DNA of 32,000 bases, from assembly GCF_000179635.2 (NCBI RefSeq), contig NC_014833.1, forward strand, positions 3,330,001 through 3,362,000, in the 5' to 3' direction. Source of the stretch: Ruminococcus albus 7 = DSM 20455 (GTDB taxonomy: Bacteria; Bacillota; Clostridia; Oscillospirales; Ruminococcaceae). The position numbers were made by a program, and so were the translations under genes. The notes under the pieces were generated by a model, which was not told the origin of the DNA, did no database searches, and was given only the letters and a program-made list of their open reading frames with translations. Below are positions 2,653-28,031 of this stretch, piece after piece (the stretch's first letter is position 1; the number at the start of each line of letters is the position of its first letter).

Positions 2653-4395
2653 TTAGTCCTGATACTTGCCTCTCTTAACGTAGGTAGTATGCAGATACTT
2701 GTGAGCGTTGTGAGCGCCGGGAGCTTCAAAGAATTCCTTGTACAGCATATCGCAAACAGGGCTCTCGTGAGACATTCTCAGCTTCATGCTGCTGTCTGCA
2801 TCGTACAGAGCCTTAGCTCTGATAGCCTTGAGGTCAACGAAGTTTCTAACTGCGTCGCTCTGAACAGGCTGACCGCCGCCGTTGATACAGCCGCCGGGAC
2901 AAGCCATGATCTCAACGAACTGGTAATCTCTCTCGCCGGAGAGTATGCCGTCGATGATCTCTCTTGCGTTAGCAAGACCGGAAGCAACTGCTACCTTTAC
3001 GGTAACGCCGCCTACTGTGTAGGTAGCTTCCTTCAGACCCTTTGTACCTCTTACATCGTGGAACTCCAGAGGCTCGCACTTGCCGTCCAGCTTAACAGCT
3101 GCGGTTCTGAGAGCAGCCTCCATAACGCCGCCTGTTGCGCCGAAGATAGCGCCTGCACCGGAAGCGATCTCGAAAGGATCGTCAAACTTCTCGTCAGGCA
3201 GAGCATTGAAGTCGATACCAGCTTCTCTGATCATTCTGCCCAGCTCACGGGTCGTGAGTGCAACATCAACGTCATCATAATCGCCGTTTCTCTGCTCTTC
3301 TCTTGTTACCTCGAACTTCTTAGCAGTACAAGGGATAACGCTGACTACGAACAGGTTCTTGGGATCGATGCCGTTCTTCTGGCAGTAGTAGCTCTTGAGC
3401 AGTGCGCCGAACATCTGCTGAGGAGACTTGCAGCTCGACAGATGAGGCAGGAAATCAGGATAGAAGTGCTCACAGAACTTTACCCAACCGGGGCAGCAAG
3501 AGGTGAACATAGGCAGAGTGCCCTTGTTCTGGATCCTCTCGATCAGCTCGTTAGCTTCTTCCATGATCGTGAGGTCGGCAGTAACGTCCATGTTGAAGAT
3601 GTTAACGTCGCCCAGTCTTCTGATAGCAGCGACCATCTTGCCCTCAACGTTAGTACCAACAGGGTTGCCGAACTCTTCGCCCAGAGTAGCTCTGATAGAA
3701 GGAGCGGTGAAGAATACGACCTTCTTCTCGGGATCTGCGATAGCGTCCCAAACTTTCTTCTCGCTGCTCTTCTCGGTAAGAGCGCCTACAGGACATGATA
3801 CGATACACTGACCGCAGCCTACGCAAGCGGTAGATGCCAAAGGCATATCGAATGCGGAACCAACGTGAACGTTGAAACCTCTTCTGATGTTGCCGATAAC
3901 GGAAACGCTCTGTACATTCTTACAAGCAGCAACGCATCTCATACACTGTATGCACTTGTTGTTATCTCTTACGAGGAAAGGAGTGGAGTCGTCGATAGGC
4001 TTGTTCATTTCCTCGGGCATGAATCTGTCCTCATCTGCGCCGTAAGCAACGCTGAGCTTCTGCAGCTCACAGTTGTTAGCTCTTACGCAGGACAGACACT
4101 TCTTCTTGTGGTTTGAAAGGAGAAGTTCCAGAGTAGTCTTTCTGGACTTTCTAACCTTAGGAGTATTTGTGAATACCTCCATGCCCTCTGCTGCAGGATG
4201 TGTACAAGCAGCAACAAGACCTCTTGCGCCTGTGATCTCAACTACACAGATACGGCAAGCGCCGATGCAGTTAACGTCCTTCAGGTAGCAGAGTGTAGGT
4301 ATATCAACATTAGCAGCCTTAGCAGCTTCGAGAACGGTAGAACCTGCGGGAACTTCAACAGGTATGCCGTTTATTTTAAGATGAATCATTTCCAT
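2653..4395 (-). CDS. hydA: [FeFe] hydrogenase catalytic subunit (HydA/HndD type of trimeric NAD(P)- and ferredoxin-linked hydrogenases)
   Basis: 580 aa. N-terminal 2Fe-2S ferredoxin-like fold (CYLKDVNCIGACRIC) and several Cys clusters. H-cluster motifs are present: TSCCPGW, IPCTAKKFE and EIMACPGGCINGGGQP. A small-subunit-like C-terminal tail follows. GAGGAGG RBS. Confidence 0.95.
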   Translation of the reverse strand: MEMIHLKINGIPVEVPAGSTVLEAAKAANVDIPTLCYLKDVNCIGACRICVVEITGARGLVAACTHPAAEGMEVFTNTPKVRKSRKTTLELLLSNHKKKCLSCVRANNCELQKLSVAYGADEDRFMPEEMNKPIDDSTPFLVRDNNKCIQCMRCVAACKNVQSVSVIGNIRRGFNVHVGSAFDMPLASTACVGCGQCIVSCPVGALTEKSSEKKVWDAIADPEKKVVFFTAPSIRATLGEEFGNPVGTNVEGKMVAAIRRLGDVNIFNMDVTADLTIMEEANELIERIQNKGTLPMFTSCCPGWVKFCEHFYPDFLPHLSSCKSPQQMFGALLKSYYCQKNGIDPKNLFVVSVIPCTAKKFEVTREEQRNGDYDDVDVALTTRELGRMIREAGIDFNALPDEKFDDPFEIASGAGAIFGATGGVMEAALRTAAVKLDGKCEPLEFHDVRGTKGLKEATYTVGGVTVKVAVASGLANAREIIDGILSGERDYQFVEIMACPGGCINGGGQPVQSDAVRNFVDLKAIRAKALYDADSSMKLRMSHESPVCDMLYKEFFEAPGAHNAHKYLHTTYVKRGKYQD

Positions 4396-11134: not shown

Positions 11135-12238
11135 TTAATGCTCAACTCTGTTTTTGCCGTTGTTCTTGCCGTCGTACAACCTGTCATCAGCAAGACTTAT
11201 AATCTTTTCAATATTGTCATGGGGTTTGCCCTTGCATACGCCTATCGTCATCGTAACAGAGAATCTTTTTGCGCCTGCCCTGAATTTCTCTCGGCTCACC
11301 CGGTTTATGATCTCCTCAGCACAGGCTATACCACCGTCAAGCCCGGTCCCGGGCAGGATAAACAGGAATTCCTCTCCACCCCATCTTGAAACATATCCGC
11401 CTTCGGGTACATTTTTTCTGATGATATCAGCCACTCTCGAAAGCACCTCATCGCCCTTTGTATGACCGTAGGTGTCATTGATGCGCTTGAAGTCATCAAT
11501 ATCCCCCAGCCCGATAACATAGCCTCTTCCGCTCTTTTTGCTTCCTGCAGAGATCTCCGCCAGCTTTTCATTCATCTGACGTCTGTTGTTCAGTTTTGTC
11601 AGCGGATCGGTAGATGCCATTATCCTCAGCTGTTCTGTCTGCACCCTCAGCTTGCAGTCCTGATACATACGCATCCTGGTGAATATCAACGCAACATATA
11701 CCAACACGAATGAACCCACAATTATATTTATCACATAAAATACCGTGTTATATGACTGCTCCGCCATATCGTACTTCTCGCGCCCCGGGGTAAGGTATAA
11801 GAACCTCAGCAAACCGTAGATAGGCACCGATATGGACATGACTATAAACGGTATCACCCTGTTTTTGTTCGGCATCAGGAACGCCAGCGGTATTATCATC
11901 AGCAAAAACATACAGAAATCGGGCTTCAGCCCCACATATACCGTAGCCGTCGCCGCGTGTATTATTATCTCCGCCATTGTGGCATATACCAGGTTCAGCT
12001 TTTCTTTGACTTTTTTTGCCAGTATTATCAGCATCACATAAAATCCGACACTGAACACATTGAATATGACCATAGCCCATATCTTTGAAAACGCAAACAG
12101 CGTCAAATAAAGCGCATGAGCCGCAAGGCACGCAACTAGGGGCAAAAAATACATCAAGAAAATAGCTTTCTCAGATAACCTGTTATCCATACGTTCTATA
12201 AACGCAAGATCTTTTTTATATTGCTGTTCGCTGTACAT
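11135..12238 (-). CDS. Membrane-bound diguanylate cyclase (GGDEF domain)
   Basis: 367 aa. About six N-terminal transmembrane helices and a coiled linker. The C-terminal GGDEF domain has DIDDFKRINDTYGH and the active-site RWGGEEF. Confidence 0.9.
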   Translation of the reverse strand: MYSEQQYKKDLAFIERMDNRLSEKAIFLMYFLPLVACLAAHALYLTLFAFSKIWAMVIFNVFSVGFYVMLIILAKKVKEKLNLVYATMAEIIIHAATATVYVGLKPDFCMFLLMIIPLAFLMPNKNRVIPFIVMSISVPIYGLLRFLYLTPGREKYDMAEQSYNTVFYVINIIVGSFVLVYVALIFTRMRMYQDCKLRVQTEQLRIMASTDPLTKLNNRRQMNEKLAEISAGSKKSGRGYVIGLGDIDDFKRINDTYGHTKGDEVLSRVADIIRKNVPEGGYVSRWGGEEFLFILPGTGLDGGIACAEEIINRVSREKFRAGAKRFSVTMTIGVCKGKPHDNIEKIISLADDRLYDGKNNGKNRVEH

Positions 12239-12280
12239 ACTCTCACTTCACTTTCATAATGAGATCCTTGATTTGTATAA

Positions 12281-12309
12281 TTATAACATATCAAACCGAT
12301 TTAGTCAAT
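12281..12309 (-). promoter_or_regulatory. Candidate sigma-A promoter of the GGDEF gene
   Basis: On the minus strand, TTGACT (12304-12309), a 17-nt spacer, then TATAAT (12281-12286), about 40 nt upstream of the ATG. Confidence 0.5.
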
Positions 12310-12396
12310 GATTTCATGCAATGTAATTAAAAATTCATATTGTTATCTGATAAAACAAAAAAATGCCGTAAATCGGTTGATAGCCATTCATATAAA

Positions 12397-12449
12397 GTAT
12401 AATAAAATGCGGAGGACATCCATACTATAATAGTACGGCTATCCCCCGC
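12397..12449 (-). terminator. Candidate terminator downstream of radC
   Basis: Long interrupted hairpin: GCGGAGGA ... TCCCCCGC with an inner stem CCATACTAT / ATAGTACGG (12409-12449). On the minus strand it is followed by ATTTTATTAT. Confidence 0.45.
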
Positions 12450-12577
12450 AAATTCCATATAAAAGTTTTAGGTAGTGGGTTCAGCATAGCGAAGCTGACG
12501 CTTAGGAAAACCCTTTTTCAAAAGGTTTTTCCCCGAGAGAATGTCCCGATACACGTAGTACAGCCCTGTGAGCCAAG

Positions 12578-13267
12578 TCATTCAAAGGAGCGGAAAAAGC
12601 CGAGGGCTCGCATTGAGGTGACTTCATTGTTGGTGACGATGAGGTGATCCAGGAAGCAGACCTGATCATCGAGGAGGTTACGGAGTTTGCGCGTGAAGAT
12701 CACATCCTCATCGGAGGGTATGGCAGAGTTGCCGGGGTGATTATGGGCGAGGATGAGGATATCGGTGCAGTTAAGGGCGATGAAACTTTTAAGCTCATCC
12801 ACGTCGAAAGCGATACGGTCAGTGATACCTGCGGAAAGTACGGCAGAGGCGGTAAGTCTGCCTGCTTTGTTGATGCTGAATGCGCATAGCCTTTCTGTGG
12901 TATCGCCTTTGAAGAAATTTAGAAGATAGCGGCTGAGTGAATCAAAATCATCAGCATGGACGGACACGAAGCTTTCTTTTTCGGCACGCAGGAAGACCTG
13001 ACCCAGGAATAACAGCTGTTCGGCGCACCTTAGCCCTATGCCTTTAACCGCGGTGAGGGAGTCGATATCGGCGGAAAGGACGGTACGGAGGTTGCCGAAT
13101 GTATCAAGGAGCGCGTGGGCTGCTGCAGCGGTATCGGCGCGGGGGATGATATTGTAAAGCAGCATCTCCAGCACCTCATGGTCTGAAAAGCCGTTAAGGT
13201 CGAAGCTTTGTCTGAAGCGTTCACGCATACGTTCGCGGTGACCGCTGTGTATAGATTCATCAGCCAT
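12578..13267 (-). CDS. radC: RadC-like JAB-domain protein (UPF0758)
   Basis: 229 aa. The N-terminal HhH-like region (LLEMLLYNIIPR ... LLDTFGNL ... LTAVKGIG) and the C-terminal JAMM motif (ILAHNHPGNSAIPSDED) are typical of RadC. GGAGGA RBS. Confidence 0.85.
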   Translation of the reverse strand: MADESIHSGHRERMRERFRQSFDLNGFSDHEVLEMLLYNIIPRADTAAAAHALLDTFGNLRTVLSADIDSLTAVKGIGLRCAEQLLFLGQVFLRAEKESFVSVHADDFDSLSRYLLNFFKGDTTERLCAFSINKAGRLTASAVLSAGITDRIAFDVDELKSFIALNCTDILILAHNHPGNSAIPSDEDVIFTRKLRNLLDDQVCFLDHLIVTNNEVTSMRALGFFRSFE

Positions 13268-18402: not shown

Positions 18403-18431
18403 TTGATTTTTGAATTGAAGGGTGATATAAT
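18403..18431 (+). promoter_or_regulatory. Candidate sigma-A promoter of the first cyclophilin gene
   Basis: TTGATT (18403-18408), a 17-nt spacer, then TATAAT (18426-18431). This places the TTG start of the tracked ORF inside the -10 box and favours the ATG at 18461. Confidence 0.5.
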
Positions 18432-18460
18432 TGAGAGGTCAGGATCAAATACGGAAGGGA

Positions 18461-19189
18461 ATGAGTGATCTGAAATATTACGGTATGATCTCAGCGCTGA
18501 AAGCTATGGCGCTGACAGTGGCAGTGACACTTGCCTGCGGTGCGTTCGCATCCTGCGGCAGCACAGACACTGATAATGGCGCTAAGGCATCTGACAGAAA
18601 GGATGCTTCGGTACAGACTATCGACAGCAGCGCTGACACAGTCACTACAGGTGACGAGGATATCTCGGAGAACAGCTTTGTTATAACCCTGCGTGAGGAC
18701 AAAGCACCTATCACCTGCAAGAATTTTAAAAAGCTGGTAAACAGCGGTTTCTATGACGGACTGACATTCCATAGGGTGATCGACGGGTTCATGGCACAGG
18801 GCGGTGACCCCGAGGGCAACGGTACAGGCGGCTCGGGTGAGAACATCAAGGGCGAGTTTGACAGCAACGGTGTTGAAAACGACCTGAAGCACGTAAGAGG
18901 AACGGTATCCATGGCGAGATCACAGGATCCCGACAGCGCTTCGAGCCAGTTCTTTATCTGCTATGATGACTGCGCTGCACTTGACGGTGATTATGCTGCA
19001 TTCGGACAGGTGACGGAGGGCATGGAGGTAGTTGACAGGTTCCTGAACGTTGAAAGGACTATGGGACAGGATGGACAGATATCTTCTCCCGTAACACCCA
19101 TAACCATAACCGATGCGGAAATGCTATCTTCAGATGCTGACGGTCATGACAGAGCGATATTTACTGTGGAATTTTCAGAGGAGCAGTAA
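18461..19189 (+). CDS. Cyclophilin-type peptidyl-prolyl isomerase lipoprotein (one PPIase domain)
   Basis: Signal peptide with lipobox AFASC, then a Ser/Asp/Thr-rich linker. The cyclophilin core has [22 protein letters not shown] and SQFFI. The ATG at 18461 has the RBS GGAAGGGA. Confidence 0.9.
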
Positions 19190-19219
19190 AGGGATACGTA
19201 AAACTTGATAAGAAAGGAA

Positions 19220-20467
19220 ATGAATGATTTGAAAAATAACAGGATCAGAAAAGCGCTGAAAGTAATGGCGCTGACATTGGCTATGACACTGACCTGCGGT
19301 GCGTTCGCATCCTGCGGGAACACAGACAAGAAGAATGACTCGAAGGCAGCTGACAAAAAGGATGCTGCGGCACAGACAGATGATAAGGGCGGTGACGCAG
19401 TTACTTCCGGCGATGAGGATGCTTCGGAGGACAGCTTTGTGATAACCCTGCGTGAGGACAAGGCACCCATAAGCTGTGAGAATTTTGAAAAGCTGGTAAG
19501 CAGCGGTTTCTATGACGGAGTTACCTTCCACAGAGTAGTGGCAGGTTTCATGGCACAGGGCGGCGACCCTGAGGGCACAGGTGCAGGCGGCTCGGGTGAG
19601 AACATCAAGGGCGAGTTCAGCGCGAATGGTGTCGAGAATGACCTGAAGCATCAGAGAGGCACCGTATCCATGGCGAGATCACAGGACAACGACAGTGCTT
19701 CAAGCCAGTTCTTTATCTGCTATGATGACTGCGATTTCCTTGACGGCAACTATGCGGCATTCGGTGAAGTATCACAGGGCATGGAGGTAGTTGACAAGTT
19801 CCTCAACTGCGACAGACAGATGAATCAGAACTATGAGCTGGCTGAGCCCGTAAAGCCCATTACAATAACCAAGGCTGAGATGATAGATCCCGATACCGAC
19901 GGCCATAAGAGAGCGAAGTTCACAGTAAACTTCACAGAGAGAGAGTTCAAGGAAGGCGAGTTCACCATAACTCTCCGCGCTGACAAGGCTCCCATAACCT
20001 GTGAGAACTTTAAAAAGCTGGTAAAGGAAGGCTTCTATGACGGACTGACATTCCACCGCGTCGTTGATGACTTCATGGCACAGGGCGGAGATCCTGAGGG
20101 AACAGGCATGGGCGGTTCTTCTGAGACTATCAAGGGCGAGTTCAGCGAGAACGGTGTTGAGAATGATCTCAAGCACGTAAGAGGCACAGTATCCATGGCA
20201 AGATCAAGCGATCCTGACAGCGCTTCAAGCCAGTTCTTCATCTGCTTTACCGACTGCGCTTTCCTTGACGGACAGTATGCGGCTTTCGGTGAAGTAAGTG
20301 AGGGCATGGAAGTTGTTGACGGCTTCACTACCGTATCACGCGGTTACTCACAGTCTTCAAACCCTGAGCTTTCCGCACCCGGAACACCTATCACCATAAT
20401 CAAGGCTGAAATGGCTGATCCTGATGCTGACGGAAATGACAGAGTAAAATTCACAGTTAAATACTGA
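19220..20467 (+). CDS. Cyclophilin-type PPIase lipoprotein with two tandem PPIase domains
   Basis: The signal peptide and lipobox are nearly identical to the preceding gene. Two complete cyclophilin cores follow ([15 protein letters not shown] ... SQFFICY and [15 protein letters not shown] ... SQFFICF). The ATG at 19220 has the RBS AAAGGAA. Confidence 0.9.
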   Translation: MNDLKNNRIRKALKVMALTLAMTLTCGAFASCGNTDKKNDSKAADKKDAAAQTDDKGGDAVTSGDEDASEDSFVITLREDKAPISCENFEKLVSSGFYDGVTFHRVVAGFMAQGGDPEGTGAGGSGENIKGEFSANGVENDLKHQRGTVSMARSQDNDSASSQFFICYDDCDFLDGNYAAFGEVSQGMEVVDKFLNCDRQMNQNYELAEPVKPITITKAEMIDPDTDGHKRAKFTVNFTEREFKEGEFTITLRADKAPITCENFKKLVKEGFYDGLTFHRVVDDFMAQGGDPEGTGMGGSSETIKGEFSENGVENDLKHVRGTVSMARSSDPDSASSQFFICFTDCAFLDGQYAAFGEVSEGMEVVDGFTTVSRGYSQSSNPELSAPGTPITIIKAEMADPDADGNDRVKFTVKY

Positions 20468-24805: not shown

Positions 24806-25763
24806 GTGCTACAATTGTTACTGACAAAAATCGGAGTTTATAGGCAGGTGCTTAGATTGGACGATAACATTATATCCAAATTATGCAAAAAGTGTTTTTC
24901 TGAAATTCCACAATCAATTGAACGATGTTCGGTAGGACAAGGCAACTATGTCTTTATTGTTCAATTAACTGATACAACGTATGTCATTCGGTGCAGTCCC
25001 GAAAAGAACGCTTACAATGATACAGTATATTGGTTGGAGAAATTGGCATTTATAGAAATACCTATCCCTAAAATCGTTGCCAAAGGCGTATTTGAAGATA
25101 CCGAATATATTACCCTTACATATTTTGAAGGAAAGGATATCGGACTTGTATATTCACTTCTTAGTGATGAGGATAAGAGGACTATTGCAAGTGAAATTGT
25201 GTGCATTCAGGAGCGTGTCGCAGCATTGGAATTAGAAGATATTCCTTCCGAATGGACATGGCACTCCGAAATTAATTATATGCTTGACCGAGCTGAAGAG
25301 CGTATTGCGGCAAACGAATATTTTGATATTGAAAAAGTAGATAGACTTCGCAAATCAGCAATAGCTTTAGATAAGTATTTTGACAGAATAGAGCCAATAG
25401 CATATTTAGATGATGTAAGCACTAAAAATCTATTGATACATGACGGGCATATATCCGGGATAGTTGATATAGATTGGATAGGCATCGGAGATAGGCTTAC
25501 TTATGTTGCACTAACAAACATTGCTCTCCTGAACATGGGATATGATACAGATTATGTAAAATATATTCTGAAAGAAATGAATTTGAGCAGTATTCAGAAA
25601 AAAAGCATTTTTGTTTTATTCACTTATGTACTGTGTTGATTTTATGGGCGAGCGCGGAATGCAGTTTACGGATAAGTATATAGAGGTAAACGAACAAATT
25701 ATTGACAGACTTAACAGTATCTATGACTTGCTTTGGAAAGAATTTGAGGAACACGGTCATTGA
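24806..25763 (+). pseudogene. Aminoglycoside/choline-kinase-like phosphotransferase (APH family), apparently frameshifted
   Basis: The frame-2 ORF has a kinase catalytic-loop-like DDVSTKNLLIH and the metal-binding GIVDIDW, and stops at 25637-25639. Frame 3 is open from about 25587 to the TGA at 25761-25763 (FLFYSLMYCVDFMGERGMQFTDKYIEVNEQIIDRLNSIYDLLWKEFEEHGH). The two frames join if one A is removed from the A7 run at 25598-25604. Confidence 0.55.
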
Positions 25764-25941: not shown

Positions 25942-26403
25942 TCATTTGAATATGCAGTAGAGGATGCCGTAAGCTATACTTGCCAGGGTACCGTAAAGGA
26001 TGACAGGTCCGCTTATGATAAAAATTTTCGCACCGATACCGGTGATAAAGCCCTCTGTGCGGAACTCAACAGCAGGTGCACATACGGAGTTAGCGAAGCC
26101 TGTAATAGGCACGAGGGTACCTGCACCTGCGTGTTTGGCGATCTTTTCGTAAAGCCCCAGACCTGTCAGCAGGGCTGAAATAAATATCAGGGTAATGGAT
26201 ACAGCCGAAGCACCAGCCTTTTCATCCAGTCCCAAAGCGCGGTACATTGAATCCAGCGCCTGACCGGCAGTGCATATCAGTCCCCCTATAACAAAGGCTT
26301 TCGGCACGTTTTTGTACCACTTGCTGCCGCGTGATGCGGCGGTATACATCTGCTTGTACTGTGCCTTGGTTATAGCAATTTTTCCGTTATTGCCCCTCAT
26401 GGT
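25942..26403 (-). CDS. spoVAC: SpoVAC/SpoVAEB-family sporulation membrane protein
   Basis: The core (AFVIGGLICTAGQ ... AGAGTLVPITGFANSV ... GPVILYG) matches stage V sporulation protein AC. I prefer the ATG at 26403 (MRGNNGK...), which has the RBS GAAGGAGG 7 nt upstream, over the tracked start at 26442. Confidence 0.8.
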   Translation of the reverse strand, partial: TMRGNNGKIAITKAQYKQMYTAASRGSKWYKNVPKAFVIGGLICTAGQALDSMYRALGLDEKAGASAVSITLIFISALLTGLGLYEKIAKHAGAGTLVPITGFANSVCAPAVEFRTEGFITGIGAKIFIISGPVILYGTLASIAYGILYCIFK

Positions 26404-26530
26404 ATGACCTCCTTCAGATCCGCAGCGAAATTTTTCGGACAAATGCCGCCCTTATCCACAGCAATATTCGCCCTATATCTATTATAAACAAACAATGTAC
26501 AGCTGCTTTATTTATTGTTACCGAGCAGCT

Positions 26531-27350
26531 CTTATTTATACATTTTTCTGTCCATTTATTAATGATCTTTGTCTATATGGGAATTATTTCCACCAAATTT
26601 TAAGCATTCTTGCTAATTCACCTATTAATAAAACGTTTCCATTGTTGTATTATACAATTTGAGTTAAATAGTTTAAACAATCGACCGCCGACCATTTTTA
26701 GCTCACGCTCTTATCATCACCGCAATTTTCAGTCATCCCCCGACGAAAACCATTACCGAAAATTTGCGTTCCGAATCTCATCATAAACCTTCGCTCCAAA
26801 AATTATATACAAAAAATGTACGTTTTATCACCCTCTCATGTCATAACAGAGGTTGTTTGTACTTGTTTTTTATCGTTTATTAATGAAGTATAAACTTCTT
26901 CCATATTTTTCCACTACTTTTTATCCTTCTTTGCTTAAACCATAGTTCAGAAAACGTTTTCGATGGCATTTCGCACAATCGCCCAAAATGCCCTTTTTGC
27001 CCCATTCCGACCTCTGAAATTTGTGTACAAAAATTGTATAGTCCTCTTCAAAAGTATTACCTCGCAAGCCTTATTTTATACAGATTTCTTCCTAATTATT
27101 AAAGGATTTTTACCTATTGTAAGATTTTTCCAGTAGTTTTTAAGCATTATTGCTAATTCATTCGTTCAGATAACCATTCTATTGACACAATCTACAATTC
27201 AAATTGTGAACACCACTTCACAATTTTCTCCGCCGATTAATTAACCGCTCGACGGGGAAATTACATCCAATGCACCAGGACTTCATATTTTCACTGCTCC
27301 ATTAATTGACACCTCCCGACCGTATCTTCACCATATCATATCCCCCTCTA
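26531..27350. repeat. Three degenerate tandem repeat units (about 320, 220 and 280 bp) in non-coding DNA
   Basis: Collinear anchors recur with fixed offsets of +321 and then +219 nt. TTATTAA is at 26556, 26877 and 27096. TTTCCA is at 26587, 26908 and 27127. AAACGTTT is at 26631 and 26952. TTTTAAGCATT(C/A)TTGCTAATTCA is at 26598-26620 and 27138-27160 (22 of 23 identical). Confidence 0.55.
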
Positions 27351-27501
27351 TATAATAGAAGCCACCGCGCACACAATACCAAAGTCACCCGTTTATCGCT
27401 TAAATGAACTGCCTTGTTGTGCAAAATATCCTACTTCGTGCAACAAAATGTCTTTTCGGTTGTGCAATCACACAAAACATTTTAAATCTTGCAATATTAT
27501 A

Positions 27502-27530
27502 TTGACAAATGATATTATACGTCGTATAAT
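27502..27530 (+). promoter_or_regulatory. Consensus sigma-A promoter of the padR operon
   Basis: TTGACA (27502-27507), a 17-nt spacer, then TATAAT (27525-27530), about 135 nt upstream of padR. Confidence 0.7.
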
Positions 27531-27535
27531 ATCAT
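27509..27535. promoter_or_regulatory. Perfect 27-bp palindrome overlapping the promoter spacer and -10 box (candidate operator)
   Basis: ATGATATTATACG-T-CGTATAATATCAT has 13-bp arms with no mismatch. Its position fits autorepression by the downstream PadR-family regulator. Confidence 0.55.
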
Positions 27536-27665
27536 CAGAGCAAAGATATTGCACAACTCAAAATACTGTGAGAGAAAATATATTACACAGTATACTGCAC
27601 TGCAGAGCAAAAGAGACGAGATGACACAAAACAAAAGAAACGCCTTAGGGCAAGGAGAATGACTT

Positions 27666-28031
27666 ATGCACAGAGTAATTAAAGAAAGGAGCAGAAATAT
27701 GGGATTTCCGGTCAATGCAGGATTGCTTGATGCTATGGTGCTTTCAGTGGTCCGTAACGACGATACCTACGGATATGAGATAACCCAGTTTCTCAGAAAA
27801 GCCGTTGATATCTCCGAATCGACCCTCTACCCCGTACTCCGAAGGCTCCAGAAAAATGAGTTTCTGGAAACATACGATAAGGAGTTCATGGGAAGGAACC
27901 GAAGATATTACAGAGTCACCCCGAAAGGGAACGAGGCACTGGAGGAATACCGCCGTGAATGGCAGGCACATAAAGAGAAGGTAGACAGTATATTGATGAA
28001 CAAGGGGGCGGACGACAATGAACAGACTTGA
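27666..28031 (+). CDS. PadR family transcriptional regulator
   Basis: Winged-HTH signature: LLDAMVLSVVRNDDTYGYEITQFL ... STLYPVLRRLQKNEFLETY ... RRYYRVTPKG. The alternative start at 27699 (MGFPVNAG...) has the RBS AAAGGAG and is at least as likely. Confidence 0.9.
   Translation: MHRVIKERSRNMGFPVNAGLLDAMVLSVVRNDDTYGYEITQFLRKAVDISESTLYPVLRRLQKNEFLETYDKEFMGRNRRYYRVTPKGNEALEEYRREWQAHKEKVDSILMNKGADDNEQT

Follow-up and report, generated by a model that had tools for sequence, protein, structure and literature searches.

Tandem non-coding modules between padR and a spoVAC-like gene of Ruminococcus albus 7: a candidate amplified promoter/operator region

Tandem promoters in front of one gene are known from the cell-wall-protein operon of Brevibacillus brevis, which has the promoters P1-P5, and from rRNA, which has P1/P2. 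Multicopy tandem genes for small RNAs (sRNAs) are represented by LhrC1-4 of Listeria, Qrr of Vibrio and PrrF1/2 of Pseudomonas, which possess clear Rho-independent terminators and conserved stem-loops. Regulators of the PadR family act on divergent genes, as in the pairs PadR/padC and LmrR/lmrCD. Here, an array of repeats is described that bears on all of these systems and is located between a spoVAC-like gene and a divergent padR gene of Ruminococcus albus 7 (DSM 20455). The analyzed stretch of DNA, referred to as the window, comprises 32,000 nucleotides (assembly GCF_000179635.2, contig NC_014833.1, positions 3,330,001 to 3,362,000 of the forward strand), and positions are counted from its first nucleotide. 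According to the sequence comparisons, the array is a clade-specific, selectively maintained, copy-number-variable set of non-coding modules. The reading preferred here, with a probability of about 0.55, is that promoter/operator modules of the spoVAC-like gene were amplified in tandem.

The divergent spoVAC-like (minus strand) and padR (plus strand) genes are separated by a gap of 1,265 bp. As the original prediction had stated, no open reading frame (ORF) of 60 or more amino acids is present within 26443-27514, where the longest frames have 55-58 amino acids. The array proper extends from 26481 to 27224 and consists of three direct, diverged copies of a ~185-bp core, designated units A, B and C, all directed at spoVAC (Table 1). 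The periods between the copies are 321 and 219 nt, and the spacers of ~5-135 nt are unconserved. A repeat search returned anchors that form two three-copy families with spacings of 321/219 and 321/218, and sensitive self-BLAST recovered three collinear copies with identities of 68% over 175 nt (A-C), 61% over 163 nt (A-B) and 60% over 167 nt (B-C). Overall identity among the window copies is 58-68%. The three collinear repeats with offsets of 321 and then 219 nt had been predicted, as had a 23-mer shared by the first and third copies, which occurs exactly twice in the window (26598-26620 and 27138-27160; 0 expected). Of the predicted dimensions the periods were thus retained, whereas the proposed units of 220-320 bp at 26443-27400 were replaced by the shorter core and the narrower array. 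Local alignment scores of the copies were 29-53, compared with 11.5 +/- 1.8 (maximum 22) for dinucleotide shuffles (z = 9.6-23.6), and the predicted repeats are thereby confirmed. The array escapes Tandem Repeats Finder, as divergence among the copies is too high for this program.

Repeats inside a long region free of ORFs could also represent a mobile element or dispersed repeat (miniature inverted-repeat transposable element or repetitive extragenic palindrome), a leader of the riboswitch type, a large structured RNA, an array of the CRISPR (clustered regularly interspaced short palindromic repeats) type or an iteron array, and this whole group of explanations is very improbable. Units of ~185 bp with 58-68% identity, periods of 219-321 nt and no short exact repeats, neighbored by spoVAC and padR, do not match CRISPR, iteron or type III antitoxin repeats, in agreement with the original prediction, which had set aside the first two. 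An iteron array or replication origin is further disfavored by the DnaA boxes, which show no enrichment window-wide (12 versus 7.9 +/- 2.8), and the candidate of a DnaA-box cluster was rejected on this count. The sole perfect DnaA box of the window (TTATCCACA) is located at 26452-26460 (plus strand), inside the spoVAC leader. The sequence TGTGGATAA is present also in the type 1 units (defined below) of strains AR67 and KH2T6.

A search profile was built from the three window copies, iterated with nhmmer and applied to the window and the loci of 80 relatives. It identified 26 copies in seven genomes, without exception in one orientation and within the padR-spoVAC intergenic region. The window contains three copies, R. 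albus AR67 (L013), R. albus KH2T6 (L016) and the metagenome-assembled genome (MAG) L010 four each, L012 three, R. albus 8 (L014) seven and L015, where the contig is cut, at least one. In R. albus 8 the array forms ~1.9 kb without ORFs of 60 or more amino acids. A locus identical to the window was found in assembly GCA_000621285.1 and in several Logan assemblies, and the nearest other genomes bear the label Ruminococcus albus. Logan contigs from SRR1168360/61/525/528 and SRR4055030, among them L008, which covers 27294-25817, may be RNA-seq assemblies of R. albus 7, and contigs from SRR0599xx are broken within the array in the manner of low-coverage DNA. In the MAG L011 standard units are missing at the normal threshold, and a tandem pair of its own occurs at 3573-3983 (two 204-nt copies, 207-nt period, 88% identity). 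This duplication reaches the ribosome-binding site and stops 18 nt before the spoVAC ATG, and a weak relationship to the standard unit is seen in its promoter-proximal part. It is an independent and recent event in a genome without standard units, and duplication at the spoVAC promoter is therefore recurrent. A comparison of unit numbers among relatives, suggested along with the original prediction, gave 2-7 copies with the diverged pair of L011 included. Copy number appears to have changed repeatedly through local tandem duplication.

No internal repeats were found upstream of spoVAC in ~60 more distant relatives, in which the gap is usually <300 nt. The divergent padR-spoVAC pair is present without repeats in L017, so that the two genes were neighbors before the array arose. 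When metagenomes were scanned with the 19-mer of highest conservation, three further arrays were among the 120 matches listed. Outside the padR-spoVAC locus no unit copies were detected in the window or in the loci of the 80 relatives, and collections of plasmids, phages and viral contigs contained no related match to the unit. Since matches in these scans were restricted to the one locus, the module looks locus-specific and not dispersed, which argues against a mobile element.

The blocks of a unit were read in the direction of spoVAC from an alignment of the 26 copies, in which distal units are assigned to types 1/2, middle units to type 3 and proximal units to type 4. Block a is a palindrome, which has the form AAATTGTGAA-N6-TTCACAATTT in types 1/2 (perfect at 27204-27223) and GTTTAAAC..TTTAAC in types 3/4. 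It is followed by block b (TTGTACAAT/TTGTATAAT, in types 3/4 located 17 nt after TTTAAA), block d (AAAACGTTTTCT), block e (TTTAGCAAnAATGCTTAAAAT), which comprises 22 nt and is nearly invariant in all copies, and block f (TGGAAA). Block g (TTAATA) precedes a spacer that is fixed in length and variable in sequence, and block i is (T)GTATAAA. Block j is a variable segment with a G+C-rich hairpin in the proximal units, and block k (TACATTTTTTGTATATAAT) marks the point after which alignability stops. Over the 126 columns from block b to block i, the 26 copies show one indel. The conserved columns are 86% A+T, and the blocks form uninterrupted runs of 10-22 nt without a wobble pattern.

Conservation stops exactly at the TATAAT box. 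A pair of the TTAATA/TATAAA type is present in all three window units, its spacing is constant in 25 of the 26 copies and the intervening sequence varies. Hexamers resembling -35 and -10 elements of sigma-70/sigma-A promoters are 16-18 bp apart in the window units, and the 5' end of type 3/4 units carries TTTAAA-17-TATAAT/TACAAT. The proximal unit occupies the place of the spoVAC promoter and leader.

Between the window and AR67, identity is 0.72 for unit C, 0.61 for unit B and 0.78 for unit A, compared with 0.46 and 0.48 for the spacers, 0.54 for the leader and 0.43 for four-fold degenerate sites. At such sites of spoVAC, the window is 33-46% identical to its relatives, which corresponds to saturation. 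Between AR67 and L010 the units are 0.68-0.84 identical, the spacers 0.53-0.57 and the four-fold sites 0.64. As the units share 61-78% identity between species, against neutral-looking spacers and four-fold sites, every copy seems to be under purifying selection. A neighbor-joining tree places the units of the window and of AR67, KH2T6 and L010 by position, not by genome. This indicates that those duplications are older than these species and that each positional copy has been kept. The expansions of R. albus 8 and L011 are separate and younger.

These identities bear directly on an explanation that we consider unlikely, namely that only the proximal unit works and that the distal units are functionless relics, left when slippage or unequal crossing-over duplicated the promoter region of spoVAC. 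Unit B, the least constrained of the three, would fit such a history, because its e-block is degenerate, its first -10-like box is lost and its identity to orthologues is 64%, versus 74-77% for unit A. Type 2 units of AR67 and L010 are barely above neutral (0.68 versus 0.64), and recent duplications are known from L011 (88% identity) and R. albus 8 (up to 79%). However, unit C is 71-74% identical to its orthologues, compared with saturated four-fold sites (0.43) and adjacent spacers (0.46-0.48), the key blocks are unchanged in almost all of the 26 copies, the positional types are maintained in four species and the core is almost free of indels. This selection signal contradicts a pure-relic origin, except perhaps for unit B.

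The promoter/operator reading is preferred because conservation lies upstream of the -10-like TATAAT box and ends there, the spacing of -35 and -10 elements is fixed around a free spacer, the geometry is rigid, the palindromes are A+T-rich and the downstream spacers are neutral. Among the possibilities offered by the original prediction, it is the cis-regulatory module that is favored by these properties. A module would consist of ~185 bp of upstream regulatory DNA with palindromic operator-like sites and the 22-bp near-invariant block. It would contain two or three sigma-A-type -10 elements, (T)GTAYAAT, two of them with a -35 partner at fixed spacing, and would end in TATAAT, followed by an unconstrained transcribed spacer. 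The distal modules would be additional copies that have been kept and that either initiate transcription in the direction of spoVAC or are bound by the same regulators. A candidate for such a regulator is PadR, because it is divergently encoded and very conserved: amino-acid identity across relatives is 91-96% for PadR, 77-82% for SpoVAC and 45-71% for HAAS. The number of copies would set the strength or responsiveness of spoVAC expression. The signal answered is probably envelope stress, which is proposed because of the padR-HAAS-toastrack-PspC neighborhood.

Several observations weigh against this interpretation. Promoter-like hexamers are common in A+T-rich DNA, and a scan yielded 13 of them versus 6.3 +/- 2.8 expected, a modest excess. 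TATAAA, the most frequent -10 candidate, does not have the final T that is usually critical, and the last TATAAT box has no conserved -35 element. The canonical PadR operator ATGT-N8-ACAT is absent from 26401-27665 at up to one mismatch, and its window-wide count equals chance. Typical sites of transcription factors are less rigid than a stretch of 22 nt that hardly varies among 26 copies, and an RNA base-pairing seed would fit such a stretch at least as well. Moreover, the promoter model gives no reason why selection should keep several diverged promoters over one strong promoter.

The rigidity of block e is explained better by a second possibility, which is clearly less probable than promoter duplication. 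According to it, the units are small non-coding RNA genes, or the array is a repeat-containing RNA, with transcripts that start at TTTAAA-17-TACAAT, are largely unstructured and use the 22-nt block UUUAGCAAnAAUGCUUAAAAU, nearly invariant in the 26 copies, as a seed or protein-binding site. The confinement of constraint to a discrete ~170-nt segment with neutral spacers between, the promoter-like element ahead of this segment in type 3/4 units and a copy number that varies as for known multicopy sRNAs are consistent with such genes. So are the proximal units, in which a variable hairpin near the 3' end is followed by a U-rich stretch and shows one compensatory change between species (GCTGCTC/GAGCAGC versus GCTGCCC/GGGCAGC). 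However, the sense strand lacks a canonical intrinsic terminator, none being present inside the arrays of the window, L013 and L014; most unit hairpins are weak, with z near 0, and the U-run is offset, starting 3-10 nt past the stem. The 5' promoter is missing from type 1/2 units and from unit B, and a search of the window gave no complementary target. The spoVAC-sense strand of the window has a strong G>C skew, which R. albus 8 and L012 do not share. A transcribed purine-rich RNA, deduced from this skew, was dropped as a candidate, as these two genomes have the opposite skew and the variable columns have none. On the strand opposite to spoVAC, the proximal-unit hairpin (L013 3882-3894, minus strand; ~26501-26534 in the window) is directly followed by TTTTATTTAT, which gives a canonical-looking intrinsic terminator in the wrong direction.

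Consensus secondary structure was almost absent from the alignments. For the 26 units RNAalifold gave a consensus of -1.07 kcal/mol with 3 invariant pairs, and for the seven proximal units plus leader one of -1.55 kcal/mol, in both cases without compensatory support. A search of all column pairs for covariation returned a single 4-bp helix with several pair types, which when taken as an 8-bp helix pairs 72.5% of cells, compared with 68.4% in shuffles. The lack of a consensus fold and of essentially all covariation argues against sRNA genes and structured RNAs alike. For the whole window Rfam gave 0 matches at gathering scores, and at E up to 10 sub-threshold noise (12-21 bits). The large structured RNA locus considered in the original prediction was discarded on these grounds, and its duplicated sRNA survives as a possible minor reading, with units that have neither terminators nor conserved structure. 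In an extended form, which is similarly doubtful, the modules would be genes of a new multicopy non-coding RNA family, with 2-7 tandem paralogues in the R. albus clade only. Their essentially unstructured products would act via UUUAGCAAnAAUGCUUAAAAU, which would either serve as a seed for base pairing or take up an RNA-binding protein like a sponge. They would be linked to the SpoVAC channel and to the envelope-stress locus with PadR-HAAS-toastrack/PspC.

The array could also be composed of remnants of a duplicated small protein gene or still encode small hydrophobic peptides on the plus strand, since several copies have plus-strand frames of 45-75 codons with similar translations, for example ...GNYxHQILSIxAN.... 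This has hardly any probability. The likeness of the translations follows from that of the DNA, and many copies contain stops in this frame, often at the same column. No open frame is conserved among the copies, as the longest frames differ or are interrupted, and the column entropy has no 3-nt periodicity (phase means 0.88/0.92/0.83, permutation p = 0.86). Together with the runs of 10-22 nt without wobble pattern, this speaks against coding. The short ORFs are thus unconserved between units, with scattered stops and no shared frames, as had been predicted, while the idea of a decayed gene array was abandoned, because codon periodicity is lacking and the units show purifying selection rather than decay. 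An origin of the spacers as decayed copies of the leader and gene start was also rejected: z was 3.4 for one spacer (B-to-A) and not significant for the others. The B-to-A spacer is 48-50% identical to relatives, which is about neutral.

Table 1. Features of the spoVAC-padR region (positions in the window; blocks of units are given in the direction of spoVAC)
Feature	Position	Strand	Description
Solitary spoVAC-like gene, 152 aa	25942-26400	-	Pfam SpoVAC_SpoVAEB, E = 4e-40; array points at this gene
spoVAC leader	26401-26480	-	Palindrome CGAAAAATTTCG 26437-26426; ribosome-binding site GGAGG 26412-26408; read from sequence
Unit A, proximal, type 4	26481-26684	-	74-77% identity to orthologous proximal units of L013, L016 and L010; TTTAAA-17-TATAAT 26677-26649; GAAACGTTTT; 22-nt e-block 26618-26597; TTAATA-N16-TATAAA 26562-26535; in the 3' part hairpin AGCTGCT...AGCAGCT 26534-26501 and Box3 26500-26481 ending in TATAAT
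Spacer B-to-A	26685-26801	-	Leader-like AAATTTTCG...TTTTCG motif; non-conserved 33-aa ORF
Unit B, middle, type 3	26802-26998	-	Most degenerate copy; 64% identity to orthologues; kept blocks AAAACGTTTTCT, TTAATA-N16-TACAAA 26883-26856 and GTGATA-18-TATAAT 26831-26802
Unit C, distal, type 1/2	27020-27224	-	71-74% identity to type 1/2 units of relatives; perfect 20-bp palindrome TTGTGAA-N6-TTCACAA 27204-27223 at start; e-block 27158-27137; TTAATA-N16-TATAAA 27102-27075
Conserved non-repeat intergenic part	27225-27501	.	~70% alignment to L016 and L013; contains CGGTTAATTAA (~27243-27233, minus strand) and two TTGTGCAA boxes
padR promoter	27502-27535	+	Perfect consensus TTGACA-17-TATAAT
Divergent padR gene	27666-28031	+	Pfam PadR, E = 2e-18; heads padR-HAAS-DUF4097 (toastrack) operon

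A palindrome of the CGAAAAWTTTCG type, located 10-20 nt ahead of the spoVAC ribosome-binding site, is found also in L012, L014 and L015 and in partial form in L010, L013 and L016. On the downstream side of spoVAC there is no spoVAD-sized ORF, and neither spoVAD nor spoVAE is located next to the solitary spoVAC of the window. A lone spoVAC is the usual state in Ruminococcus relatives, and an ORF of ~340 amino acids follows spoVAC in few loci, for example in Butyricicoccus. The spoVAD and spoVAE genes of R. albus 7 are Rumal_1029-1030, located elsewhere in the genome, and have approximately zero reads in culture in the data given in the supplement of PMC6776011. In L283 (GCA_002363195.1), a MAG with identical PadR and SpoVAC proteins, a GNAT acetyltransferase gene replaces the APH phosphotransferase gene that is found downstream of spoVAC in the window (24806-25639). 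From the gene content this is read as a strain-level gene swap beside the locus.

On the padR side, a perfect 27-bp palindrome, ATGATATTATACG-T-CGTATAATATCAT (27509-27535), overlaps the -10 element of the padR promoter and is probably an auto-operator of PadR. The same arrangement of promoter and overlapping palindrome occurs in L013, L014 and L011. All three exact TTGTGCAA sites of the window flank this promoter, two upstream of it (27417-27424 and 27460-27467, plus strand) and one inverted downstream (27549-27556, minus strand), which suggests a second type of operator. The units contain TTGTACAA, which is one base off TTGTGCAA. Downstream of padR, Pfam identifies HAAS and DUF4097/toastrack genes, followed by a CAAX-protease-like gene.

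Two further observations concern other parts of the window. The GC skew flips from about -0.2 to +0.1/+0.2 around 12000-12600, at an A+T-rich gap (12239-12577, 35% GC) with minus-strand genes on both sides. The cumulative skew has its minimum at 12 kb, with a single near-DnaA box nearby, and this position could be a replication-related switch point. At 18431-20467 (plus strand), two adjacent genes encode lipoprotein-like proteins of the cyclophilin-type peptidyl-prolyl isomerase family, the second with two isomerase domains. Long near-identical stretches mark this pair as a local gene and domain duplication.

Conserved non-coding intergenic regions of 1-2 kb without a match to an RNA family are rare in bacteria. 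In the present locus selection maintains several diverged copies of one regulatory module, and their number shifts between sister species. If the promoter/operator reading is true, this would be a natural case of gene tuning by amplification of the promoter/operator region instead of the gene. SpoVAC is a spore-channel protein that has been reported to behave as a mechanosensitive channel, and R. albus is described as non-sporulating. The array is a handle on the role and control of the SpoVAC channel in vegetative rumen bacteria.

Among the described systems, the Rex operator resembles block a of the array. Its consensus is reportedly TTGTGAA-N4-TTCACAA, and perfect half-sites, TTGTGAA and TTCACAA, stand at the beginning of unit C and of type 1/2 units in relatives. 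However, the spacer has 6 nt instead of 4, which puts the half-sites on different faces of the helix. A Rex site was therefore rejected, and the palindrome is probably the site of another dimeric regulator. Comparison by eye with the consensus sequences of cre, CodY, CIRCE, sigma-54 and the sporulation sigma factors gave none that fits.

As in PadR/padC and LmrR/lmrCD, the padR gene of the locus is small, its promoter is overlapped by a palindrome, and it faces its candidate target across a shared regulatory region. In contrast to these pairs, the canonical ATGT-N8-ACAT is absent, the shared region is repetitive and has 1.3-2 kb instead of 100-200 bp, and binding of PadR to the units is putative. 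The array resembles LhrC, Qrr and PrrF in its diverged paralogous non-coding tandem units, its variable copy number and a short invariant segment as a possible seed. It differs from them in that the units lack terminators and conserved stem-loops and that conservation ends in a -10-like box. With the tandem-promoter operons it has in common serial sigma-A-type elements toward one gene and long nested leaders. Unlike in those operons, the putative promoters are here part of homologous, duplicated modules of ~185 bp, which are spaced by 190-335 bp, number between 2 and 7 in related species and each contain the same operator-like blocks. The element is read as a further variant of tandem promoter and regulatory duplication, and the probability that it represents a new multicopy RNA family is not negligible.

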